From Escherichia phage A221: 64,000 nucleotides of DNA. The notes beneath the pieces are model-generated. The model was not told where the DNA came from. It did no database searches and saw only the letters and a list, made by a program, of their open reading frames with translations. The stretch lies in sequence record ON862890.1. One strand, given 5' to 3'. Of this stretch, positions 15 to 13,686 are shown one piece after another (the stretch's first letter is position 1; every line of letters starts with the position of its first letter). The translations under genes were made by a program, and so were the position numbers.

Positions 15-3000
15 ATGGCTAATAAACCAACACAGCCTGTTTTCCCTCTCGGTCTGGCGGCTGAAGAGCAGTCTACTTTGGCTGGTGTCCTCAACACGGG
101 TACGATTGAGCATGGACCAGATGCTGTCCTGACTTTACCCGAGGGTAATGCCAGCGCAGGACTCCCGTCTTCCGTTCGCTACAATGCCGACTCCGACGAA
201 TTTGAGGGCTTCTATGAAAATGGTGGATGGTTGCCGCTGGGTGGCGGTGGTATCCGCTGGGAAGTCCTTCCGCATGCCTCTACGGCAACGCTCACTGAAG
301 GGCGAGGCTATCTCATTAATAATACCACAGGGGCATCTACAGTGGTTCTCCCTTCCCCTACGCGTATTGGGGAATCCGTTACTATTTGTGATGCTTATGG
401 GAAATTTGCCACTTACCCATTGACCGTGTCTCCTTCTGGAAATAATTTGTATGGCTCCACTGAAGACATGGCTATAACAACTGATAACGTATCAGCAACG
501 TTCACTTGGTCTGGACCTGAACAAGGTTGGATTATTACATCCGGCGTCGGTCTTGGCCAAGGTCGTGTCTATAGTCGTGAAATCTTTACAAAAATTTTGG
601 CGTCTGAAACAAGTTCTGTCGCTCTCAATACTCCACCAACAATCGTGGACGTGTATGCTGACGGAAAACGTCTTGCGGAATCCAAATATTCACTAGATGG
701 GAATGTAATCACTTTCAGTCCTTCTTTGCCAGCCAGTACAGAACTTCAGGTGATTGAATATACTCCTATTCAATTGGGTAATGGCGGTGGTTCTAGTTCT
801 TCTACGATTACTTGGGTCTATAATGGGGGTTCAGCGATTGGCGGTGAAACCGAAATCACGTTGGACGTCGTTGTTGACGATGTTCCGGCCATTGATATAA
901 ACGGAAGTCGCCAGTATAAAAATCTGGGATTCACATTCGATCCATTAACCAATAAAATCACTCTTGCGCAAGAACTGGAACCAGAGGATGAAGTTGTTGT
1001 AATTATCAATGGAACACCAAACATCTATAATCAAATTGATTATACTTTGCGGGAAGTTGCTCGTGTAACCAATGTTAAAGATACAGAGGTCGTTTATTTT
1101 AGTGTTGGTGCTGCGTTAAGTGGGTATAAAGTTATTTATGACAAGGAGACGCAAAGGGCTTATCCCTTGCCTGCTGATATTGTCCCTGGTACTACTGCTG
1201 TCAGCCTTAGTTCTTCCGCTGTACTTGTGCATTCCGCGGGTTCTGTAGATCTCGGGGAATTGGCTGTATCTCGTGAAGAGTACGTCACATTGTCCGGGTC
1301 ATTTGATACCGGTGTAACAGTTAATACCAAGAATGAACTGGTTGTTTTTACTGACAGCAAGTACCGTTGGGATGGTACATTACCTAAACAAGTCCCAGCA
1401 GGTTCAACGCCTCAGTCTACTGGTGGTATAGGTAAGGGTGCTTGGGTTAGTGTTGTTCGTGGCGTAGTAGTACCACAGCTTAGTGAAGAGTTGAAACGTT
1501 CCTATGCGCGTTCAGGTTTAAACCTAGTAGGGGATTTCAACGCAGGGGCAGTAATTCAGAACGTATCTGAAGCGTTGCTGGATACCCGTACTGGGAAGGT
1601 ATATACGGTAAGTTCCAGTGCTTCTTTCCCCCTGAGTGTTGTATCGGGTACTAACCCTGAGGCCAGTCCTGACTTATATCTAGAGGCCACTGCAATAACT
1701 TCTAAACATTATATAGACCCTACGGATTATGGTATACTCCCAGGTAATACGGCAGCAGTAAACTCTACTCGCCTGAAGGCATTGATTGAACAAGTTAACA
1801 CTTCTGGTGGCATTATCAAATTCCCGGCAGGTACTTACAATGTAGGGGATATTAGTAGTAATTGGAAAACTGTTGGGGTATGGACTAATGCCCTTGCACG
1901 AGGTATAGAAGGTGCCGGCCCGGGATTAACTACCTTAGTAGTATCTGCACCTGCCTCAGGTAATGATATCTTCACAGGAGGCGGTTACTGGATGTCCTTT
2001 AAGGATATCAGCTTTATACTAGATACTTGGGTTCATACTTCGGACTATACAAGCAGTTCGTTCGGCTCTACCGTAAACTTGTTTAATATGCTTACAGTAG
2101 GCTCGCCTAGATTGACGTTAAGTAATGTACGTGCTGTTGGCTTTAATATGGCATTCGGGTTCTGGACTTGGGTATCAGTGATTGAGCACTGTGAGGCCCA
2201 GCAATGCAGGTACGCCTTTGTATTTAATAAAGGTACTAGCATAACAGCTAACTCCCTGTACGCTCAGGATTCATGGTATGCTTATATTATTGGGGCTACT
2301 CCTAGTAATTTTATAACAGATCCTAAATCCGACTCCAGCATGATTCGAGGTGGACTCTACTATAGCACTCTCCAGAACTGTGCTTGCGACAGAACTGTTA
2401 AAGCAGGTTACACCGTAGGCGAGTACGACGGCTCCCTTATCTCATGTGGCTCGGAGATTCCTTATGAAACTGCAGCTAATATTCATAGAGGTATTGTAGA
2501 CTACCCTCCTCTTGTAGATAGTGCAGGTTCTCCGTCTGTTATTACTATGGACAGTAATACTATTATACAGGAAATGCATGTACTTAGCAATCTTACAGTC
2601 TTCCGCACCGGTGCAGGTATAGTTAATATCCGCAGAAATAACCCTACAGTTCATATCCAGGGACTGATTTCCCGGCAAGGTAATGCAGGTGCAGGTGCAG
2701 GGCTTATTAATCTTCTGACTTTCGATAGAGCAGTGACTACGTGCAACGTTACAGTAGATGGTCGTCTGCAGAGCTTGTACGGTCGCAGCATTAGCTTTGG
2801 CGCACTGTATGGAAGTACCGTACAACGTAGGTGGCACGGTGAGGCTGTACTTACATGCGACAGTATCAGTACATACTTAGGATACAATACGCCTCTGATG
2901 AACTTCGGATTCACTAACCATGCTCTCAGAGGTAACGGTAAGCTCAGGTTTGCGTTGACTGGTACAAGCAACGTAGATAGTCGTGCATTAATACACTGCA

Positions 3001-3317
3001 CTATAGGGGACATTGCGTCGCAAGCCAGCTTATATAACTTCCTAGGTACAGTAACTATCCGTGCAGTATATACAGCGGCTTCACCTAATGACCCTAACCT
3101 TACTTTTGCGCAGGCATATGTAAACGGTAATATGAGTTCTGAGGTTTCAGTAGCTATTGAAGACAGTACCCGTAATGCCGGAGGCAAGGATGTGGTTCTG
3201 ACATTCAGTAGTAACAGTGGTGTGTACTTAAGGGCTTACACTGTACAAGCTGAAGTTACTACAGGTGCCCGGTGGGTTGACGGCAGTGCTCCTAAGTATC
3301 TGGCGTGGGTGGAGTAA
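15..3317 (+). CDS. tailspike protein 1 (putative polysaccharide depolymerase, beta-helix type)
   Basis: 1100-aa ORF; ATG at 15 in ggggtatttgaaATG context; N-terminal MANKPTQP module; internal VVYFSVG/GYKVIYDK/QRAY module shared with ORF 6099-8396; C-terminal FPAGTYNVGD pectate-lyase-like signature. Confidence 0.65.
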   Translation: MANKPTQPVFPLGLAAEEQSTLAGVLNTGTIEHGPDAVLTLPEGNASAGLPSSVRYNADSDEFEGFYENGGWLPLGGGGIRWEVLPHASTATLTEGRGYLINNTTGASTVVLPSPTRIGESVTICDAYGKFATYPLTVSPSGNNLYGSTEDMAITTDNVSATFTWSGPEQGWIITSGVGLGQGRVYSREIFTKILASETSSVALNTPPTIVDVYADGKRLAESKYSLDGNVITFSPSLPASTELQVIEYTPIQLGNGGGSSSSTITWVYNGGSAIGGETEITLDVVVDDVPAIDINGSRQYKNLGFTFDPLTNKITLAQELEPEDEVVVIINGTPNIYNQIDYTLREVARVTNVKDTEVVYFSVGAALSGYKVIYDKETQRAYPLPADIVPGTTAVSLSSSAVLVHSAGSVDLGELAVSREEYVTLSGSFDTGVTVNTKNELVVFTDSKYRWDGTLPKQVPAGSTPQSTGGIGKGAWVSVVRGVVVPQLSEELKRSYARSGLNLVGDFNAGAVIQNVSEALLDTRTGKVYTVSSSASFPLSVVSGTNPEASPDLYLEATAITSKHYIDPTDYGILPGNTAAVNSTRLKALIEQVNTSGGIIKFPAGTYNVGDISSNWKTVGVWTNALARGIEGAGPGLTTLVVSAPASGNDIFTGGGYWMSFKDISFILDTWVHTSDYTSSSFGSTVNLFNMLTVGSPRLTLSNVRAVGFNMAFGFWTWVSVIEHCEAQQCRYAFVFNKGTSITANSLYAQDSWYAYIIGATPSNFITDPKSDSSMIRGGLYYSTLQNCACDRTVKAGYTVGEYDGSLISCGSEIPYETAANIHRGIVDYPPLVDSAGSPSVITMDSNTIIQEMHVLSNLTVFRTGAGIVNIRRNNPTVHIQGLISRQGNAGAGAGLINLLTFDRAVTTCNVTVDGRLQSLYGRSISFGALYGSTVQRRWHGEAVLTCDSISTYLGYNTPLMNFGFTNHALRGNGKLRFALTGTSNVDSRALIHCTIGDIASQASLYNFLGTVTIRAVYTAASPNDPNLTFAQAYVNGNMSSEVSVAIEDSTRNAGGKDVVLTFSSNSGVYLRAYTVQAEVTTGARWVDGSAPKYLAWVE

Positions 3318-3437
3318 GCGCAGGAGTAAGTGCACCTGCACTGCACCCCCCTGTACTACCTGATTACGTACAGGCATAGTGTGTGTCCTGAGTGCGCGTG
3401 TAAACGTGTCACTTAAAAATGATATACTCACCTGAGG

Positions 3438-3513
3438 CCCTCCCTCACCCTCAACGCGCCCAATTGCCCCCATAGGGGGGTGGCCTAGGGAAAACATAGG
3501 GGGTGGGGGAGGG
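3438..3513. repeat. C-tract / G-tract imperfect inverted repeat enclosing CCCCC-ata-GGGGG palindrome
   Basis: ccctccctcaccctc (3438-3452) is complementary to gggggtgggggaggg (3499-3513) allowing two G-U pairs; palindrome at 3467-3480 between the arms. Confidence 0.6.
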
Positions 3514-3661
3514 TTTTGTTGTACCTCAAACAATCCTTTATGCAGACTGTTTTAGTCAATCTCGACTTAACTAACCTGAGAAAGTCCCTATGGGAAATGA
3601 ACCAGATAACGTAACTCTAGCTAGACTCGAAGAGAGACTAAGAAACATTTTCGAAAACCAA

Positions 3662-3690
3662 AACCCCGCTCTGGCGGGGTTCTTATTATA
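3662..3690 (+). terminator. intrinsic terminator-like hairpin
   Basis: ACCCCGC-tctg-GCGGGGT stem-loop followed by tcttatt. Confidence 0.55.
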
Positions 3691-3718
3691 TCCATGTTCA
3701 TAAATTTTATTAGTTCAG

Positions 3719-3725
3719 GCTAAAT
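3719..3725 (+). promoter_or_regulatory. late-promoter-like motif CTAAATA(cccc)
   Basis: CTAAATAcccc 38 nt upstream of tailspike 2 start; recurs before seven other genes. Confidence 0.5.
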
Positions 3726-3762
3726 ACCCCATATTGGCAAATCCTCTATGGGGTATCTTCAA

Positions 3763-6051
3763 ATGACCAGAAACGTCGAGAGCATCTTTGGAGCGGTCGT
3801 AACAGCTCCGCACCAGATTCCATACACTTACACAGCAACGGGCGGAGAGAAGTTTATCTCCCTCCCTTTCTACCCTGTCACTGGTATAGTCACAATCAAC
3901 GGTGGTATGCAAGTTCCGTTAGACAACTTTGAAATCGATGGAAATACGTTGAATCTCGGACGCGCATTATCCAAAGGTGACGTTGTGTTCTGTCTGTTTG
4001 ACAAGATTCTGTCTCCAGAAGATTATAAAACCGGGATTCGAATCTATAAGTTTAAGGCTATAGGAGGTGAAACCGAGTTCACTCCTGATTACACATCTTA
4101 TGGAGTCCAATCTCTTTATATCGGTGGTGAGTACAAAACACCCGAAATTGAATATTCCTATGACAGCGCGACAGGGAAAGTGTCTTTGCAAACTGCACTG
4201 ACTGCAGGTGTTTGGGTAGTCGCTGAGATGTCTGTTAAACAACCGAATATCAGTCCGTTGTTTGACCGAAGTATTCAAGAAATCGCCCGTTCAGCTAATG
4301 TAAAAGACTCTGAAGTAATTCTCAGCACTGATACTACTCAGTCCCTCAATGGTAAGAAGGTTGTTTACTCTGTTAATGAACAGAAGTCTTATGGCTTGCC
4401 GTCGTTACCGTCCAATGTCTATATTGGCTCCGTATCCAATGGGCAGTTAACCTATAATCCTGGTCCTATTACAGTCCCTCTAGTTGAAGTGCCTGATTCG
4501 GCTGCCAAGTTGAAGAGTGAACTTGCTGCCAATACTGGGTCAAGTATGATTCATACTAGCTCCGGTGACACTGTTGAAGAATCTCTTGTTAAGTTAAAAG
4601 ACTCTTTCCGATTCGTAACTCCAGAACAGTTCTATGAAAATCATCCAGGGGAAACTGACTGGGCCGTTATGATAAATGAGGCATACGCATATGCTCGTTC
4701 AAATAATAAGAGCGTGTTGCTTGCCAATGACTACAATATATCTTCAAGTGTCATACACTATGATGGTTTGAATGTTTTATGCACAGGTAGAATCATAGCT
4801 TCCCCTTCCGGGAATTACACTTTTACCACTGCGCAAAGTAACACAGAGAACGCTGCTTATATTATTACTACAGAAAATGGAGTGTTTAATAATGCTAAGT
4901 CTGCCTCTGTTACGGGACTAACCTTAACATACACCGCGAACAGAGAGCCTTCCGGCTACACTGACCAGCATATTGCTTCGAAAGGAGTAGTAATTACCGA
5001 CATAGCTAATGTGTATATACGCAATCTACAAACTTTCGGCTTTCTTAACGGTGGGGTTGACGTTGGAGGGGTTTCTGGGAAAGGTTACGAAATAGTAATC
5101 GACAAATGTTTATCATGGATTCACGCATGGGAGGATTCAGAGAAGATCGGTTTCCGTTCTAATGTAACCGATTCAACATTCAAAGATGTAGTAACCGTCG
5201 CTTACGGTATCGGAATTCACGATGTAAAAGGTAGTGGTACAGTTTTTATCAACCCTCACCCGTGGGGTTATCCTGTAACTTCAACCGATTCATCCCAAAA
5301 ATACCCTAATATGCAGTGTAAAATACCGTTTCTCATTTCTGGTAGCGCTTCAACTTTCATTAGGCCTTACGCAGACACTGTGACAAAAATTAACAGTTCA
5401 CTTGGCTCAAGTAGGTCAAACGGTGGTGTAGGGTTTTACATAGAGGGTTGGCGTAATAAGATAATAGCGGGGAATGCGTTGATCCATCCGGAAGACGTAA
5501 ACACAAACATGGCTTTGGTGTATTTTAAAGGAGAGTCTGCCAGAAATGAGATTGAAATTGCAGATGTAATAAATCCATCTAAGTTAATTGTTGAAAGAGC
5601 ATCATACGACTCTGGTCATCAAGATGCATTGTTTACTAACCTTGTTAGGCTCCCTGAGTATATCGCTGGTAATTTAAGCAATCTTACAGGAAGCATATCA
5701 TTCGATGGCGCAGGAATAACTTCTTCCGGCACATATAGTTTACGCAGAGACGGTGAATACATAGACATTTCTTTACTTATTAATGTGACGGCAATTTCCA
5801 GCCCTTCGGGTTCGTTATCCGTTACTCTGCCTCGTGGACTTAAGTGCTATTTTGGGCCTACATCAGAACCAAGCCAGAATTCCTGCTTTGGGAACATCAA
5901 CCAAAGCAACATTGGGGTAATAGCTGTTTTGAACGGCAGCTCTATAGAATTCTTTTATAAAACGGCAAATGGTTCAAGAACCCAAATTAACGCAGCAGGT
6001 GTATCAACTGGCGCTCTTGAGCTATCCATACGTGGTAAGATTAGTAATTAA
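3763..6051 (+). CDS. tailspike protein 2 (putative depolymerase)
   Basis: 767-aa track ORF from 3748; ATG 3763 preferred by ggggtatcttcaaATG context matching gene 1; CTAAATA motif 28 nt upstream; Ser/Thr/Gly/Asn-rich beta-helix-like C-terminal half. Confidence 0.55.
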   Translation: MTRNVESIFGAVVTAPHQIPYTYTATGGEKFISLPFYPVTGIVTINGGMQVPLDNFEIDGNTLNLGRALSKGDVVFCLFDKILSPEDYKTGIRIYKFKAIGGETEFTPDYTSYGVQSLYIGGEYKTPEIEYSYDSATGKVSLQTALTAGVWVVAEMSVKQPNISPLFDRSIQEIARSANVKDSEVILSTDTTQSLNGKKVVYSVNEQKSYGLPSLPSNVYIGSVSNGQLTYNPGPITVPLVEVPDSAAKLKSELAANTGSSMIHTSSGDTVEESLVKLKDSFRFVTPEQFYENHPGETDWAVMINEAYAYARSNNKSVLLANDYNISSSVIHYDGLNVLCTGRIIASPSGNYTFTTAQSNTENAAYIITTENGVFNNAKSASVTGLTLTYTANREPSGYTDQHIASKGVVITDIANVYIRNLQTFGFLNGGVDVGGVSGKGYEIVIDKCLSWIHAWEDSEKIGFRSNVTDSTFKDVVTVAYGIGIHDVKGSGTVFINPHPWGYPVTSTDSSQKYPNMQCKIPFLISGSASTFIRPYADTVTKINSSLGSSRSNGGVGFYIEGWRNKIIAGNALIHPEDVNTNMALVYFKGESARNEIEIADVINPSKLIVERASYDSGHQDALFTNLVRLPEYIAGNLSNLTGSISFDGAGITSSGTYSLRRDGEYIDISLLINVTAISSPSGSLSVTLPRGLKCYFGPTSEPSQNSCFGNINQSNIGVIAVLNGSSIEFFYKTANGSRTQINAAGVSTGALELSIRGKISN

Positions 6052-6056
6052 ACAAT

Positions 6057-6078
6057 CCCCTCTTCGGAGGGGTTTACT
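6057..6078 (+). terminator. intrinsic terminator-like hairpin
   Basis: CCCCTC-ttcg-GAGGGG followed by tttact, just after tailspike 2 stop. Confidence 0.55.
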
Positions 6079-6098
6079 AGAAAAACAAAGAGGTTGTT

Positions 6099-8396
6099 AT
6101 GAACGAAATGTTCTCCCAAGGCGGTAAAGGCTCTACTGGTATTCTTACCAATAAGCAAGCCATTGCTCGTAAGTTTGGTGTTAAGCAGAATGAAGTAGTC
6201 TACTTTTCTGTGGGAGTGGATTTAGGTGGTTACAAAGTTATTTACGATAAGACTACTCAGCGTGCTTATTCATTACCTGTACTTCCGGTAGGAACCACTG
6301 CTGTAAGCCTTAGCAAACAGGCAATCCTGGTTCATTCAGCAGGTACAGTTGATTTGGGTGAACTGGCTGTCACACGTAGGGAATTCGTGTGTTTATCTGA
6401 CTCTTTTGCCACTGGTTTGGTAGTGAATACCAGAAATGAGCTTCTGGTGCATAATGGCATTGGTTATACCTATTTAGGTACTCTACCTGTAACAATTACC
6501 GCAGGAACTAATCCAGTTGACAATGCGGACTGGAAGCCACAGACAGATCCTAATTTACGGGAAGAATTAGCGTCTGACTCCGGCTTCCAGCTGGTTCCGT
6601 CTGTTGAAAAGCAACGATGGCTTTACGCAGGGGATGTGCGTGCTTTTGGAGTTGTCGGTGATGGGTCTGATGAGGCATCTAGTTTACAGTTAGCCATTAA
6701 CTCGGGTAATGTTTTTGTTCCCCCGGGCATGACGGTTTCTCATTCACAAGTTAACATACCAAAAGGTACAATTTTTACTTTCGGTCACGATGCTGGGTTG
6801 ACATCATTGACCGCTAATGCTCTTAATTTTGTCAGCGAGAGCCAATTCAGCTTGCTTTCCCCCGCAGCTTTCGGAGCAACGTCCATCACATTAACATCTG
6901 AGGTGACAGGAACTGGGTATACCCGGGCGTTGATAATACGCACTGAGGACACAAGTGACGCTTGGTATATTGCCAACGCACAGAATCCGGATGTAACCGG
7001 ATACCAAGGCGAATCTTTTTTAATCTCGTCCATATCAGGTGCTACCGTAAATTTAGCAACGGCTTTACCGTGGGACCTAACTACCACCAATTCGGTTATT
7101 TATCTTATAAAAGGCAACGCTACTAAGTTCATCGGGGGAATCTTAAAAAATTCTGCGTCAGGGTCTAGCTACATGTACCAATCTGTGGGGGCTTCGCTTA
7201 TAGAGTTCCATGGTACTGTTTTTGATTATAATGGAAATGGCGGTTCAAGGCATGATAACGCGTACGGTGTGGTGTACCACAACACTACCCATACCGGGCG
7301 TGTCGGAAATGGTAATATATTTTTTGGTTACGGATCTACAGATTGTACTGTTACAGGTACGACCCACATTGGAGGGACTGGTGGGGATGCGCAAATAATA
7401 TCTTATGCTGGCTGCCGTAACATCCGTACATCCCATAACACCCTAAAACCTACGGCCAACAACGGAGGTATATATTTTGGTGCAAAATGCTTCGACTGCA
7501 ACACCCATGCTGATTATATTAAAGGCGGAAAGTATGGGGTTATGGGGGCATTTGGTGCTCAGCGTATTGTTGTGGACTCGCTGGCGGCAGACGATCAAGT
7601 ATCAGGCGTTATCTTTATGGAGCAATGCCAGAACTTTACCATCACAAACCCGTCTATTAGATTCATAAAGACTGGCACTCAAACAACCGCTGCGATATTA
7701 ATTAAGGACTGTGATTATGTGACAGTGGATGCAAATGTCCCTGTAAATACAGGGGCGAACGGGTATATAGTCAGTATGTATAGCGCGCCTGCATACGCCC
7801 TGACAGTTAGAAAAAATATAAACATTACGGTAAAAGGTACTGGCAGTGTATACCTTACTAGCCCTATGACCAATTTCTCGATTAAAGACTGTTTAACATC
7901 TGGCAATATAACAGTTTACTACGCCAATGGTACGTCTACTTACGGCAGGGTTACGCGTAATAGTTGCCGGTTTTTAGTAGCTCAAAGTTTCCAATATTGT
8001 GACATAGATAGTAACACCATTGCGGGGGCTTCTGATTCTGAGGGTATACGCCTCGGTGGTAACTGTAGATGGAACAACGTATATAGAAACAAGGTTAGCG
8101 GGGTTACTACGGCATTCTTCGTTAACTCAGCACCCGCAAATCTATACACGAATGCATTTCATGATGATAACGTAATAGATTACTCAACAGTAACCACCTT
8201 CGTATCATCTCAGACTGGAACCACCACGCCAGTTACTGGAGCTTTAAACCCTGCTCCAGTAAGGAATTTCTTTCTCCCGGCAACAGGTTGGCAGGATAGC
8301 CCTACGGTAAAAAGAACTGTTAGTGGCTGGAGGCATAAAGGCACTACAACAGGCACAGCGTCCGATTGGTTTACTATCCCCTCGCCAGAAGCGTGA
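6099..8396 (+). CDS. tailspike protein 3 (putative depolymerase, pectate-lyase-like)
   Basis: 765 aa; RBS aaagagg; N-terminal module about 60% identical to residues 355-445 of ORF 15-3317; AFGVVGDGSDEASSLQLAINSG motif typical of pectate_lyase_3-type tailspikes. Confidence 0.65.
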   Translation: MNEMFSQGGKGSTGILTNKQAIARKFGVKQNEVVYFSVGVDLGGYKVIYDKTTQRAYSLPVLPVGTTAVSLSKQAILVHSAGTVDLGELAVTRREFVCLSDSFATGLVVNTRNELLVHNGIGYTYLGTLPVTITAGTNPVDNADWKPQTDPNLREELASDSGFQLVPSVEKQRWLYAGDVRAFGVVGDGSDEASSLQLAINSGNVFVPPGMTVSHSQVNIPKGTIFTFGHDAGLTSLTANALNFVSESQFSLLSPAAFGATSITLTSEVTGTGYTRALIIRTEDTSDAWYIANAQNPDVTGYQGESFLISSISGATVNLATALPWDLTTTNSVIYLIKGNATKFIGGILKNSASGSSYMYQSVGASLIEFHGTVFDYNGNGGSRHDNAYGVVYHNTTHTGRVGNGNIFFGYGSTDCTVTGTTHIGGTGGDAQIISYAGCRNIRTSHNTLKPTANNGGIYFGAKCFDCNTHADYIKGGKYGVMGAFGAQRIVVDSLAADDQVSGVIFMEQCQNFTITNPSIRFIKTGTQTTAAILIKDCDYVTVDANVPVNTGANGYIVSMYSAPAYALTVRKNINITVKGTGSVYLTSPMTNFSIKDCLTSGNITVYYANGTSTYGRVTRNSCRFLVAQSFQYCDIDSNTIAGASDSEGIRLGGNCRWNNVYRNKVSGVTTAFFVNSAPANLYTNAFHDDNVIDYSTVTTFVSSQTGTTTPVTGALNPAPVRNFFLPATGWQDSPTVKRTVSGWRHKGTTTGTASDWFTIPSPEA

Positions 8397-8414
8397 CTTA
8401 TAACTGTAAAACTA

Positions 8415-8440
8415 AGACCCCATTTGGGGTCTTTTCTTAT
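8415..8440. terminator. bidirectional terminator-like hairpin
   Basis: AGACCCC-attt-GGGGTCT with T-runs on both strands; after tailspike 3 and at the 3' end of the minus-strand open frame. Confidence 0.55.
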
Positions 8441-8760
8441 ATAGAATTTACTGTTTGCATTACCCTAATTGATACTGCTGTTAAGGTGATTACTTGCCCA
8501 GAGATATTAAACATACCCAATTGAATACCTTCTACCATGAAAGGGTCTGTCGAACCAAGTGTGTAAGTGGCTAATACGTTATCTCTGTTGGCAATGTCTG
8601 TACCCTGTACCTTAACACTAGCATCTGAACCTACTACTGTGGTTCCATTGGTTCGCCTTGTTTGCGTTCTCCATTCCCTGGCTGTACCAGCACCCCTGCA
8701 ATAGTTCCTGAAGAATGCGGAGGTCTCGAATCCATGACCATAACCGCAGAAAGATAATCA
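8437..8760 (-). pseudogene. start-less open frame (about 106 codons), possible decayed or frameshifted gene
   Basis: Minus-strand frame is open stop-to-stop with protein-like translation ...GTTVVGSDASVKVQGTDIANRDNVLATYTLGSTDPFMVEGIQLGMFNISGQVITL... but lacks a start; an ATG-initiated 35-codon frame upstream (8741 to 8634) is offset by one nucleotide. Confidence 0.3.
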
Positions 8761-8785
8761 AAGCCCCTTCGGGCTTATTTCTTTC
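8761..8785 (+). terminator. terminator-like hairpin inside noncoding spacer
   Basis: AAGCCC-cttc-GGGCTT followed by atttctttc, 20 nt before the late promoter motif. Confidence 0.45.
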
Positions 8786-8806
8786 TATTCCTCGGTTGGT
8801 TGTATA

Positions 8807-8813
8807 CTAAATA
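8807..8813 (+). promoter_or_regulatory. late-promoter-like motif CTAAATA
   Basis: tataCTAAATAtctc 35 nt upstream of ATG 8848. Confidence 0.45.
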
Positions 8814-8847
8814 TCTCTATAATGGCACCTATCGATGGAGCATCAAA

Positions 8848-11800
8848 ATGCAAGAAATGAACCTCAACCGCCGCCCATATTGGGATGACTGGAATCCAGA
8901 GAAGCGTTTTTCGCGCATCCTATTCCGTCCGGCACCTATCAAAGTTCAGACGCGTGAACTGAACCAGATGCAGACCATCTTCCAGGATCAACTGGAGAAA
9001 CTTGGCAACCATCTGTTCAAAGACGGTTCAATGGTTATCCCCGGCGGCCTAACGATCACCAACACTGCTGTGTCCATGAAGTTCACTCTGGCTGGTGGTA
9101 GTGAGTTCACTGATCTGGAAGGTATCTCCGAACTCTATGTCCTGGGCAAGGACAACAATGCGAAAGCACGCGTCCTGTCCTTGGAACGTTATCCAGCTGA
9201 GCCAGATACAATGTATGCCATCTTAGAGATGACTGAGAGTGGTAGTTCAGACGGTTTCGAAGCTGGCGACAATCTATATTTCAACACCTATGACGTGAAC
9301 GATAACTTCATCCGTGTCGGCTATGGTGTGGCCGATACTGTTGGCGGTTCGATTGTCGCTCGCATGACAAAGGGTGTTTATTTCGTTCGTGGTATGTTCC
9401 TGGATGTTGAACCAACCACTTTGATCGTAGACAACGCATCGAACTCTACATCTCACCGCATTGGCTTCAAAGTTACAGAAACAATCGTGACCGAAGCAGA
9501 AGATGAAAGTCTGTTCTCCAATGCTCAGGGTACTCCGAACTCTAAAGCCCCTGGTGCGCATCGCCTGCGCGTCGACCTCGTGTTGTCTCGCTACGGTTAT
9601 GATGAAGAAGTGGCCGACTTCGTTGAACTGGCGAAGGTGAAAGACGGTCGCATTCAGTCCATGGTCACCCAGTCAACGTACAACATCCTCGAAGACGCCA
9701 TGGCTCAGCGTACCTATGAGACTAATGGTGACTACAACGTCTCTACTCACCAGATCGACCTGCGCGAACATCTGAAACAGAACAACAACGGCGGCGTTTA
9801 CACTCCGGCTGAAGGTGGTGATGAAAGCAAATTCGTGGCGGTTATGAAGCCAGGCATTTCCTACGTTCGTGGTCGTCGTATCGAAAACCTCGGCGAAGAG
9901 CTGGTCATAATTGACAAAGCCCGTGACACTGATATCCTGAACAACAACCCTGTGGCTGTTTCGACTGGCAACTATCTGGTGTCCAAGAACTCCAAAGGGG
10001 TTCCGGTTGTCTCCCGCACAATCCGCTACAAGTTCCTGAACGCATCCAGCGATGTGCAGGCCACCGCCCTGTTGATTTCGGCAGAGCGCTCTGGTACTGA
10101 ATTCCGTCTGTATATGCGCGACCTTGTTGTGACTGGGGACATGGGTACGGTGACCAAAGTTGCATATGAAGAAAGCGGTACAACGATGTTCTCCTGCGAA
10201 CTGGAGTCCAATCAGTTCAGTCAGAGTTCAGCAATTGACCTGATCTTCCCTCTGCCTGTATTTGGTGTGAAGACTCTAGCACCTACAGGCACCATCGACA
10301 TCAACTACACCGTCCTGCGGTCAAACAAGATCACGTTGAACGCCGCTGGTGCAGGATCAATCTCTGCTCCTCTGGGTTACAGCTTCAGCCCTGAGTTTTC
10401 ACTGTACTCCGCAGCGAAAGCAGACGGCACTGCAGCTCAGTTTGATATCTCTTCGGGACTGTCCCTGGCTGGTACTCCGGTTGGTTCAGCACTGCAGATT
10501 TCCCTGGGCGCGGGGTACGCCAACCAGTCTATCAACCTGTTGGCATTGATGGTCCGCACCACAGCGACGATCAAGACCAAGACTGTTACTGAAGTCACCG
10601 AGACTGTGACGTTTACTGCGGCGGCCAGCGCACAACTTGGGAACCATGATGGTTACAAGCTGATCAGCGTGAAGAACGCAAATGGCGCTGACGTCACCTC
10701 TAACTTCACTCTGGACGGCGGTCAGCGTGATGCTGCATACTACCTTTCTAACCTCATATCGTCCACAGGAGCCATTTCAGGGACGTTCACGGTGGTGTAT
10801 CAGTATTTCGCTCACAGCTCTGGTGATTTCTTCACAGCGGACTCCTATTCGTCCATCAACTACCCAGACATCCCGAACTATGTTTCATCCAGTTCTGGTA
10901 CTGTGTATGGGTTGGCCGACAGTCTGGACTTCCGTCCCAAGATCACCAGCGGAGCGTCTGACACGGACATGGTTCGCCCGAACACCGCGATCATCCTAGA
11001 TGCAGAGTACTATCTACCTCGTATTGATGCTGTGTATCTGGCCGACAACGGTGTGTTCAACGTTGCGCGTGGTGTGAGTTCCAACAACCTGGCTTCCCCT
11101 GCGATCCCAGACAACAGCATGCGCCTGTATGAATTGATGATCCCACCATACACGGCCAACATTGACGACATCCAGATTCGTACTATCGACAACCGCCGCT
11201 ACACGATGCGCGATATCGGTAAACTGGAGACCCGTATCTCCAATGTCGAATATTACACCTCACTGTCTCAGCTGGAATCCTCGGCGATGTCACAACAGGT
11301 GTTCGATCCAATTACTGGCAACCCGCGCTTCAAGAACGGTATCGCAGCAGACCCGTTCAAAGATTTCCGTCTGATCGACGATTTGTCTGCAGACTGGGTG
11401 GGTTCAATCGACACTGACAATGGTCGTCTGCGTCCGTTTGTTCAGCAGAACGCGATTGACCTGACGCCAGTCGGTTGGAACAACGTTCAGGATGGCATGG
11501 TTGTATGCAACTACACCCGTGAGATCTCTGTCCGACAGGACTATGCAACCACGACCATCAACGTGAACCCGTATGCGGTGTTCAACTGGGAAGGATTCCT
11601 GAAACTGAACCCAACTACTGATTACTGGTTTGAGAACTACTATGTTACTCCACGTGTGATCAACGAAACGATCAACACCCGTGGTGCGATCAAAGAAGGT
11701 TCCGTGTATGGCACATGGCGTACTGTGTCCGTGTCTGAGCGTGTGTGGGAACCGCATGGTGCAGGTGGTGTATGGTGGGGCTATCGCTACCGCACGACTG

Positions 11801-13686
11801 TGTCTACCCGTGACGTCACCACGTACACGTACACCGACAAGACGACCACTACCCTGACTGGCGAGCAGATCGTTGAAACGCAGGTAATCCCATACATGCG
11901 CAAAACGAACATCAACTTCGAAGCCACAGGTCTGCGTCCGTTCACTCGTGTGTATCCGTTCTTCTCTGGACGTGATGTGAGCGCGTACTGTACCCCAAAC
12001 GGTGGTGTACTGGGCGGTGCGTTGAACACTGATGCCAACGGCAACATCAAAGGTGTGTTTGCGGTTCCTCAGAACGAGACTATCAAGTTTAACACGGGTG
12101 ACAACGTCTTCCGTCTGACTGACAGTCCTGTGGACAGTAAGTCTGCTGATGATACCCTGACCAATGCTGAGGCTGTTCATAAGTCCTTCGGCAAGAAACA
12201 GGGCATCCAGAAGACTTATGTCAACACCCGCGTCCTGGGATACACTGCAACCAAGTCTACGGAAAACAAAACAGAGACGGTTGAAGTCGCGAAGTGGAAA
12301 GATCCTATCGCCCAGTCCTTTATGGTTGCCACCAATATCGGCGGCGAATACATCGAAGGGATTGAAGTCTTCTTCTCTACCAAGTCCCGTGATATCCCGA
12401 TCACTCTGGAAATCCGCGAGATGAGCAATGGTCTGCCAGCGACGACTGTCGTCACTCGTAAGACTCTGAATCCATCAGAAGTTTCTATCTCCACAGACTC
12501 TTCTGTGCCGACGATGTTCAAGTTTGATTATCCTGTGTATCTGCAGGCACAGACTGAGTTCGCGATTGTTCTCTTGGCCAACACTCAGGACTACAACGCA
12601 TACATCGCAGAGATGGGCAAGAAGAACTTGCTGACCAACGAGTTCATTGCCAAACAGCCGTACACTGGCGTGTTCTTCACATCTTCAAATGGTACGACCT
12701 GGACTCCAAACCAGACTGCCGATATGAAGTTCCGTGTATATCGCTGTAACTTCTCCGCTGGTTCAAACATCGTGACCTTCGATGCTAAAGTCGGTCCGAA
12801 GATCCGTCCTCTGGGTCTGAACACCGTGAAATGCGTCAACGGTTCTTCAACTGTTACTGTGTACGCTCCGGGACATGGCCTGACTGCGGGTGAAAGTGTT
12901 ACTCTGTCTGGGTTGACGGGTGGTTGTGGTTTCACTCCTGAGCAGCTGAACGCTCAACACACTGTGACTGATGCGACGTTCACGACGTTCAAATTCGTTC
13001 TGAGTTCCAACGCCGACTCCGACGGTCAGATTGGTGGTGAAGCGGCTTCTTTCCTAGGCAACTACTTGGTAGACATGTTCTACGCAAGCGTCACCAATTC
13101 AGCCCTGGAAGGATCTGTGTTGAAACTGGAATACCGCTATCGCGATGCGACCTCCAACTCATTCTCTGATTGGGTTGAGTTCGAATCCGATACGGACGTG
13201 TCTCTGCCGACGGAAGGTATCTATCGTCAGGTGGGTGACTTCCAGGTTCGTGCAACCATGACTCGCAACGAGAGTAATGTCTACACGGCTCCAATGATCG
13301 ACGGTGATGATTTCACTATCATCTTCAACACCTACGGTGTGGATCCGTTTGAAGATGTGTTCAGCTATGTGACCAAGGATATCGGATTCGATAACCCTTG
13401 CACCACTCTGAAGCAATACTTCGGCGCGATGCTACCTTCTCAGTCTTCAATGACTGTGCAGGTTAAGCTGCTGCGCGCAGGCCAGGAAATGGATAATGTG
13501 GCATGGGAAACTGTGACACCGACATCCCCTCTGGTCAATGACGGTTCTGCATTCTTCGAATATGAGTATGACAAGACTGTAGACAGCACCAATCCTTTCG
13601 TTGGCCTGAAGATCCGCCTGCTGGTCAGAGGCAACCGCATAGCACCGCCGTCATTCAAAGATTTCCGTTTGATTGCTCTGGCATAA
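8848..13686 (+). CDS. large virion structural protein (putative baseplate/tail-fibre-associated)
   Basis: Track ORF starts with TTG at 8800 across the promoter motif; first ATG with GGAG RBS at 8848 gives 1612 aa; sits in the late structural block after a CTAAATA motif. Confidence 0.5.
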   Translation: MQEMNLNRRPYWDDWNPEKRFSRILFRPAPIKVQTRELNQMQTIFQDQLEKLGNHLFKDGSMVIPGGLTITNTAVSMKFTLAGGSEFTDLEGISELYVLGKDNNAKARVLSLERYPAEPDTMYAILEMTESGSSDGFEAGDNLYFNTYDVNDNFIRVGYGVADTVGGSIVARMTKGVYFVRGMFLDVEPTTLIVDNASNSTSHRIGFKVTETIVTEAEDESLFSNAQGTPNSKAPGAHRLRVDLVLSRYGYDEEVADFVELAKVKDGRIQSMVTQSTYNILEDAMAQRTYETNGDYNVSTHQIDLREHLKQNNNGGVYTPAEGGDESKFVAVMKPGISYVRGRRIENLGEELVIIDKARDTDILNNNPVAVSTGNYLVSKNSKGVPVVSRTIRYKFLNASSDVQATALLISAERSGTEFRLYMRDLVVTGDMGTVTKVAYEESGTTMFSCELESNQFSQSSAIDLIFPLPVFGVKTLAPTGTIDINYTVLRSNKITLNAAGAGSISAPLGYSFSPEFSLYSAAKADGTAAQFDISSGLSLAGTPVGSALQISLGAGYANQSINLLALMVRTTATIKTKTVTEVTETVTFTAAASAQLGNHDGYKLISVKNANGADVTSNFTLDGGQRDAAYYLSNLISSTGAISGTFTVVYQYFAHSSGDFFTADSYSSINYPDIPNYVSSSSGTVYGLADSLDFRPKITSGASDTDMVRPNTAIILDAEYYLPRIDAVYLADNGVFNVARGVSSNNLASPAIPDNSMRLYELMIPPYTANIDDIQIRTIDNRRYTMRDIGKLETRISNVEYYTSLSQLESSAMSQQVFDPITGNPRFKNGIAADPFKDFRLIDDLSADWVGSIDTDNGRLRPFVQQNAIDLTPVGWNNVQDGMVVCNYTREISVRQDYATTTINVNPYAVFNWEGFLKLNPTTDYWFENYYVTPRVINETINTRGAIKEGSVYGTWRTVSVSERVWEPHGAGGVWWGYRYRTTVSTRDVTTYTYTDKTTTTLTGEQIVETQVIPYMRKTNINFEATGLRPFTRVYPFFSGRDVSAYCTPNGGVLGGALNTDANGNIKGVFAVPQNETIKFNTGDNVFRLTDSPVDSKSADDTLTNAEAVHKSFGKKQGIQKTYVNTRVLGYTATKSTENKTETVEVAKWKDPIAQSFMVATNIGGEYIEGIEVFFSTKSRDIPITLEIREMSNGLPATTVVTRKTLNPSEVSISTDSSVPTMFKFDYPVYLQAQTEFAIVLLANTQDYNAYIAEMGKKNLLTNEFIAKQPYTGVFFTSSNGTTWTPNQTADMKFRVYRCNFSAGSNIVTFDAKVGPKIRPLGLNTVKCVNGSSTVTVYAPGHGLTAGESVTLSGLTGGCGFTPEQLNAQHTVTDATFTTFKFVLSSNADSDGQIGGEAASFLGNYLVDMFYASVTNSALEGSVLKLEYRYRDATSNSFSDWVEFESDTDVSLPTEGIYRQVGDFQVRATMTRNESNVYTAPMIDGDDFTIIFNTYGVDPFEDVFSYVTKDIGFDNPCTTLKQYFGAMLPSQSSMTVQVKLLRAGQEMDNVAWETVTPTSPLVNDGSAFFEYEYDKTVDSTNPFVGLKIRLLVRGNRIAPPSFKDFRLIALA

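Follow-up and report, generated by a model that had tools for sequence, protein, structure and literature searches.

It was found that the spacer behind a tailspike gene of Escherichia phage A221 is most probably (at a probability of roughly 0.88) an ordinary recombination scar composed of two nested gene remnants, a hitchhiked pseudogene fragment and the stub of a displaced tailspike gene. The window is the whole stretch of 64,000 nucleotides analysed from record ON862890.1, and all positions refer to it. Its closest records are those of the E. coli phages RPN242, PC3, and PH4 (about 97% identity), of the Aglimvirinae/Agtrevirus type in Ackermannviridae. The features discussed below are as follows.

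6051 to 8711: putative horizontally acquired cassette (intergenic leader, whole tailspike gene, terminator, and 3′ end of a convergent gene).
6099 to 8396, plus strand: tailspike gene encoding 765 aa, as many as nithesis CDS0005; VriC-adjacent (the TSP1 slot in the CBA120 nomenclature).
8414 to 8439: predicted donor-derived intrinsic terminator (stem-loop 8414-8433 and a T-rich tail).
8437 to 8711, minus strand: pseudogene fragment of a phrog_17779 / Gamaleyavirus orf14-like TNF-knob protein gene, its last ~91 codons (about aa 118-208 of 208).
8489 to 8496: interval containing a homologous recombination crossover in PC3 (PC3 equals nithesis to the left and the window to the right).
8693 to 8696: frameshift site, C4 on the plus strand and G4 on the coding strand.
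8707 to 8711: CCTGA microhomology where donor DNA meets the resident tailspike gene at its 3′ end.
8712 to 8757, plus strand: stub of 46 nt, the leftover 3′ end of the resident tailspike gene after its displacement, with the TAA at 8755-8757.
8761 to 8785: predicted resident terminator hairpin (stem-loop 8761-8776 and a T-rich tail), scoring on both strands.
8848 to 13686, plus strand: VriC-like large virion protein gene (ATG at 8848, GGAG at 8837-8840), the resident right-hand flank.

On the plus strand, the spacer extends for about 451 to 452 nt from the end of the tailspike ORF to the ATG of the VriC-like ORF. The upstream gene had been labelled tailspike 3, a number that should be replaced, as the CBA120 nomenclature puts the VriC-adjacent tailspike in the TSP1 slot. 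Translation of 8437-8799 on the minus strand revealed 106 codons without a stop (8440-8757) followed by the TAA at 8437-8439. This agrees with the initial annotation, which had reported an open frame of about this length between two hairpins, and the translated frame includes the peptide quoted there, GTTVVGSDASVKVQGTDIANRDNVLATYTLGSTDPFMVEGIQLGMFNISGQVITL. The TAA had been placed inside the first hairpin; it actually lies 4 nt beyond the stem, within the T-rich tail. An ATG had been noticed at about 8741 in a frame offset by one nucleotide. It does exist, and its ORF runs for 35 codons to the TAG at 8634-8636. It had also been taken as the only ATG, which is incorrect: the main frame has its own in-frame ATG at 8538 (a 33-aa ORF). 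Upstream of that codon (codon 74), a search of the main frame for ATG, GTG, and TTG found none. Stop-free runs of at least 106 codons appeared in 2.6-3.7% of the shuffles of the 452-nt spacer. Thus, the length of the open frame is by itself mildly unusual and suggestive at most. A chance ORF was rejected because of the homology to phrog_17779 (profile, E = 6.5e-46; tblastn, E = 1e-49), not because of the length, for which the shuffle frequency is about 3%.

The open frame matches positions 125-207 of the 208 positions in the PHROG 17779 profile, and it is 96.5% identical to aa 124-208 of the corresponding protein of phage nithesis, a Gamaleyavirus of 72.6 kb in the Schitoviridae (G7C/N4-like). 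The initial annotation had named the lack of any homologue of the conceptual protein as fatal to its reading, and many phages turned out to have one. The match is part of a single contiguous block, 6051-8711, with 93.4% identity to nithesis, in which three elements follow one another: the 765-aa tailspike gene, the hairpin terminator, and the 3′ portion of a 208-aa convergent gene, which carries the annotation "hypothetical protein". The intact 208-aa gene lies convergent to the last tailspike gene and directly after it in nithesis, Bp4, UE-S5a, and pSb-1. More distant N4-like phages also carry a phrog_17779 gene with 54-66% identity. The members of this orf14-type family (Bp4 EpBp4_0014, pSb-1 gp17, nithesis CDS0006, and UE-S5a 013) are homologues of gp46 of Shigella phage B2. 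The fragment has the arrangement of the Gamaleyavirus orf14: it is convergent, directly downstream of a tailspike gene, and has the terminator in common with it. It shares the last 85 codons (8440-8694, aa 124-208 in frame), the stop codon, and the downstream terminator with these genes. In contrast, only the last ~91 of the 208 codons are present, a frameshift lies close to the 5′ break, and the genome carrying them is that of a myovirus of another family. Full-length members of the family have about 201-212 residues, a few reaching 225 with called N-terminal extensions, and combine a Dec-like segment at the N-terminus with a complete C-terminal domain; the homology in the window ends abruptly at 8711. 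The native start region of the parent gene, GAGGTAACTATG, is missing from the window together with the ribosome-binding site. No further copies of the fragment were found within the window.

What lies beyond position 8711 is a different gene. The segment 8712-8757 corresponds to the end of the gene annotated as "tail protein" in Agtrevirus vB_CECAV_050, its final codons and TAA included, and in a sister phage, LHE287, some 240 nt from the end of the displaced tailspike gene survive at the same position. The junction can be read by comparing nithesis (GTTCCTGAGATAC), CECAV050 (GGCCTGAAGAACG), and the identical sequence of LHE287 and the window (GTTCCTGAAGAATG). Donor (GTTCCTGAGAT) and resident tailspike gene (GGCCTGAAGAAC) each contain the CCTGA pentanucleotide. 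In the lineage of the window, a deletion between the direct repeats GCGGAGGTC and GCAGAGGTC later removed some 190 nt from inside the stub, and the deletion junction is within 8717-8725. The minus-strand ATGs at 8741 and 8735 are antisense to this stub. The ATG at 8741 is therefore there by chance, opposite a dead tailspike stub, and is foreign to the original gene. The block and its surroundings have the marks of a recombination scar: unbroken donor homology from 6051 to 8711, an abrupt junction, and a relic of the displaced gene beyond it.

These comparisons suggest the following scenario. In an Aglimvirinae/Agtrevirus-like ancestor, the VriC-adjacent tailspike gene would have been replaced by a cassette from a Gamaleyavirus (G7C/N4-like podovirus). 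The donor order is always the last tailspike gene, the shared terminator, and the convergent 208-aa phrog_17779 gene. The imported piece would have included the terminator and, beyond it, about 275 nt from the 3′ end of the phrog_17779 gene; its junction with the resident tailspike gene, of which the last ~240 nt remained, is at the CCTGA microhomology. The 9-nt direct repeats would subsequently have mediated the deletion that cut the stub to its 46 nt. What is left over is the C-terminal 85-91 codons of a TNF/C1q-like knob protein, its start, ribosome-binding site, N-terminal segment, and half of the beta-sandwich having been lost; the remnant also carries a 1-nt run contraction. Because the flanking gene is intact in Gamaleyaviruses only, the transfer probably proceeded from podovirus to myovirus, at least for the 3′ flank. 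Most likely, the fragment is neither purposely transcribed nor translated into a functional product.

The earlier suggestion of a decayed or frameshifted gene was essentially right: the spacer contains the 3′ remnant of a real gene, with a 1-nt deletion relative to the intact relatives. The further suggestion of a gene needing a frameshift does not hold, as the gene lacks its native start, its ribosome-binding site, and some 117 codons of its N-terminal part, and there is no slippery heptamer. Thus, the open frame is a decayed, frameshifted gene fragment and not a gene requiring frameshifting.

Recombination has also taken place inside the scar. It was revealed that PC3 sides with nithesis at about 33 informative sites in 7595-8488, and with the window at all the informative sites in 8497-8711. 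Thus, a crossover lies inside the fragment. The same junction adjoins four different tailspike genes, in the window, LHE287, SKML-39, and fGh-Ecl02. For the tailspikes of LHE287 and SKML-39, no close donor match was found in the phage collection beyond the remnant, and therefore a repeated Gamaleyavirus-to-Agtrevirus transfer is not demonstrable for them. Phage YX22 has a second remnant (L008, 3501-3722) consisting of codons 135-208, independently truncated and with an in-frame ATG (MNKGITRRTNG...). This second remnant follows a different tailspike slot, where the endosialidase gene is 91% identical to that of Gamaleyavirus UE-S5a. In practice, therefore, the fragment serves as a homology arm on the right-hand side.

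Tailspike exchange between these phages has been considered before. The tailspikes' N-terminal anchor domains are homologous between Gamaleyaviruses and Kutterviruses, and a 20-nt terminator motif downstream of the tailspike genes, conserved across genera, was suggested to be a hotspot of recombination (Pas et al. 2023, Virol J, PMC10408124). The setting is alike here, with a terminator motif 3′ of the tailspike genes and homologous anchors allowing the exchange of whole genes. In contrast, the shared flank in the window runs about 275 nt past the 20-nt motif into a coding remnant. This remnant goes beyond the published case in that it reveals the donor side and that a crossover can be mapped inside it. 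A literature search for a description of the remnant found no paper.

Might the fragment have been selected as a cis element, either as a homology arm for the tailspike exchange between podoviruses and Ackermannviridae or as a spacer or insulator between the terminators, or as both? The PC3 crossover, the one junction beside four tailspike genes, the second remnant after a different slot in YX22, and the proposed hotspot at conserved flanks (PMC10408124) all fit this idea. However, the use of a sequence in recombination does not show selection for that use. Moreover, the fragment erodes, only 35 codons being left in the VriC-adjacent slot (slot 1) of YX22 and in CAU_YEP3, and it is missing from most Ackermannviridae. 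Selection of this kind is unlikely, even if it is the most viable of the alternatives. The pseudogene fragment may rather persist as a neutral sequence beside an essential gene and a terminator, passively giving a right-hand homology arm for tailspike exchange.

Truncated copies of the parent gene are not limited to the recipient family. Two metagenome contigs of about 72 kb, the size of Gamaleyavirus genomes, have a truncated knob gene (L017, 5001-5291; L018, 5001-5285). One truncated form in the donor family has 96 codons, keeps the native start, and has an in-frame internal deletion (17 member sequences). The other form has 94 codons; its ribosome-binding site and ATG are deleted, and it is called from a GTG in the old 5′-UTR hairpin. 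The N4-like genomes EC1-UPM, ECBP1, PD205, ZQ2, and PE007 retain only the last ~35 codons. The parent gene is thus dispensable in its home family, too. When the 85-aa fragment was used in a large protein search, only short gene calls of 46-141 aa were retrieved. A mini-protein family made of these short calls was considered and rejected, their contexts being those of truncated copies at the same locus.

In total, C-terminal pieces of 35 to 91 codons are kept beside tailspike genes after at least five to six independent truncations in two virus families, and several of the pieces have an in-frame start. Fragments of like length recur with several different 5′ breakpoints. Such recurrence of C-terminal fragments is not predicted by pure neutrality; it is predicted by anchoring beside an essential terminator and tailspike gene. 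That the retention reflects selection, whether it favours the expression of a small peptide or a portable homology arm on the right in the movement of cassettes between N4-like podoviruses and Ackermannviridae, is quite doubtful. The pseudogene reading predicts that no peptides such as TNGTTVVGSDASVK are made.

The frame of the fragment is disrupted near its 5′ end. The coding strand of the window reads GCA-GGGGTGC where that of nithesis reads GCAGGAGGTGC. The six codons for SGTIAG (about 8695-8711), upstream of the run, are put by the 1-nt deletion into the frame of the ATG at 8741, while GAGTAREW, downstream of it, is encoded in the long frame. The metagenomic relatives L015 and L016 have a G5 run at this site and nithesis has GGAGG, while RPN242 and PC3 have the same contraction as the window. 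In L015 and L016, which lack the deletion, an uninterrupted chimeric ORF of 100-101 codons starts from the ATG (MVMDSRPPHSSGTIAGGAGTAREW). Other copies with the same junction have lesions of their own. The LHE287 copy is in frame at the shift site of the window, has a different 1-nt deletion, and has lost the stop codon. The SKML-39 copy has deletions of 1 nt and 11 nt. In the fGh-Ecl02 copy, a TGG codon has become a TGA stop, 1 nt is deleted, and the 5′ end is shorter. In GenBank records, the remnant is left unannotated except for a 47-aa call in fGh-Ecl02.

The intact chimeric ORFs raise the question of a young mini-gene of about 100 codons, starting at the ATG at 8741 with 10 codons antisense to the tailspike stub and continuing into the knob C-terminus. 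It might be functional in some Agtreviruses and recently inactivated in the window by the G-run contraction. P0001 (101 aa) and P0004 (100 aa) are intact and have exactly this architecture, and the ORF of L016 has an in-frame deletion of 3 nt. The variation is also biased to synonymous changes: of the 24 differences from nithesis in the fragment of the window, 21 are at third codon positions (20 synonymous and three non-synonymous codons), and the variants private to the Ackermannviridae copies are likewise third-position biased and mostly synonymous. Such a bias could come from purifying selection on the fragment, and it is equally expected from allele divergence in unsampled functional donors combined with repeated import. 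Since the bias cannot separate selection from imported alleles, weight was put on the frame-breaking lesions, and these occurred independently in the window/RPN242/PC3 lineage, LHE287, SKML-39, and fGh-Ecl02. Moreover, the ATG at 8741 has no Shine-Dalgarno sequence and starts 17 nt past the resident hairpin, which is terminator-like on the minus strand as well. A scan of 8300-8900 with a sigma-70 model, which is not specific to phage late promoters, found no sigma-70-like promoter. The product would have only five of the ~10 jelly-roll strands and no N-terminal segment, and no GenBank record has it annotated except as the 47-aa stub in fGh-Ecl02. There is thus only a slim chance that such a mini-gene exists, and the pseudogene fragment remains the preferred reading.

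Alternatively, the deletion might be an assembly or sequencing error, the true genome having an intact 101-codon ORF, and the lesion, one nucleotide in a C/G run, is at the kind of site where such errors are typical. However, the same G4 run is present in RPN242 and PC3, which were sequenced independently, and the search statistics of PH4 are identical to those of PC3. The contraction is therefore not an error private to the A221 assembly, and the frameshift, as a contraction from G5 to G4, is genuine. Furthermore, the arguments against a function hold even for an intact ORF. Such an error is highly improbable. As for programmed -1/+1 ribosomal frameshifting or transcriptional slippage at the G-run, the two frames do jointly give a continuous homologous peptide (SGTIAG|GAGTAREW) across the homopolymer, but this candidate was rejected as having a negligible chance, because GCA GGG GUG contains no slippery heptamer (X XXY YYZ), known transcriptional slippage tracts are far longer than a run of four G, the relatives are in frame (L015, L016, and LHE287 at the site) or broken elsewhere so that the shift is not conserved, and the shifted product would still be without 60% of the protein.

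The two hairpins fit the pattern of intrinsic terminators, a G+C-rich stem-loop followed by a T-tract, and would represent tandem terminators, one from the donor and one resident. The first stem-loop (8414-8433) has a predicted energy of -14.6 kcal/mol with a z of -3.5 on the plus strand and -13.9 kcal/mol on the minus strand. In the donor, this terminator lies between the convergent tailspike and phrog_17779 genes. The second one (8761-8776) is weaker relative to shuffles (z = -1.6). It had been proposed to mark a separate plus-strand transcript. Rather, it is probably the resident terminator, being present just upstream of the VriC-like gene in most of the 232 matched phage records, which are mainly from Ackermannviridae. 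An Rfam scan of 8300-8900 gave no match at E values up to 1, and therefore a known ncRNA is not indicated. The stem of the donor-derived terminator has a compensatory pair at 8417/8430, which is A-T in the window and RPN242 and G-C in PC3 and nithesis. The loop (8423-8424) differs too, and in PC3 these sites fall within the nithesis-like recombination tract.

What kind of protein did the parent gene encode? Neither the fragment nor the full-length parent matched any Pfam family at E values up to 1. An AlphaFold2 model of a full-length homologue (mean pLDDT 80) has a short N-terminal segment and a predicted beta-sandwich at residues 55-208. In structural comparison, the model scored 12.2 with the tail-needle knob of Sf6 (3RWN), 10.9 with PRD1 P5, and 10.2 with the C-terminal domain of BclA, followed in the list by TNF ligands and C1q heads. 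The sequence identity to the trimeric, TNF/C1q-like knobs of this kind is 8-18%, and the likeness is a predicted one. Some homologues in the parent family have collagen-like N-termini. The window fragment spans the last five strands of the ~10-stranded jelly-roll predicted by the model, and therefore its autonomous folding is unlikely.

In the parent family, the first ~45 residues are similar to the N-terminus of Shigella phage B2 gp45 (PDB 9D82; E = 3.2e-5 in a profile search against PDB). Within phage B2 (L014, 2420-3432), gp45 (99 aa) and its neighbour gp46 (211 aa, PHROG 17779) are 49% identical over the N-terminal ~45 aa (E = 1e-14). The gp45 protein is a trimeric capsid decoration protein, and gp46 does not appear in the virion protein table of the B2 paper (PMC11654681). 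The parent may thus be a trimeric fibre or knob protein, possibly attached to the capsid. In contrast to B2 gp45, the window is wholly devoid of the gp45-like N-terminal segment. Separately, the likeness between the N-termini of gp45 and gp46 suggests that knob proteins could dock at a decoration protein site.

For annotation, 8437-8757 should be given as a pseudogene fragment or recombination scar, not as a gene. The scar offers rare directional evidence on the transfer from podovirus to myovirus, and both junctions of the event, the 5-nt microhomology and the subsequent repeat-mediated deletion, are visible at nucleotide resolution. The later homologous exchange at the scar agrees with the published proposals that conserved flanks drive tailspike swapping, and swapping via the flanks is relevant to the engineering of the host range of Ackermannviridae. 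As a marker of tailspike transfer across families the scar is modestly interesting, and it would be unsurprising to a specialist.

Two other parts of the window also have a mosaic appearance. Within the tailspike gene, 6570-6719 is 92% identical to nithesis and only 57% identical to RPN242 and PC3, which suggests that the N-terminal part of the gene contains another mosaic patch. In the spacer (3318-3747) after the first tailspike ORF (15-3317), about 120 nt (around 3384-3514) are 77-87% similar to the ends of T7-like podophages. The matching regions are genome ends or short terminal repeats in Drulisvirus/KP34-like Klebsiella phages, E. coli phages ZH5 and AV102, and Providencia phage PS3. 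This segment is probably another donor flank brought in by a swapped tailspike.
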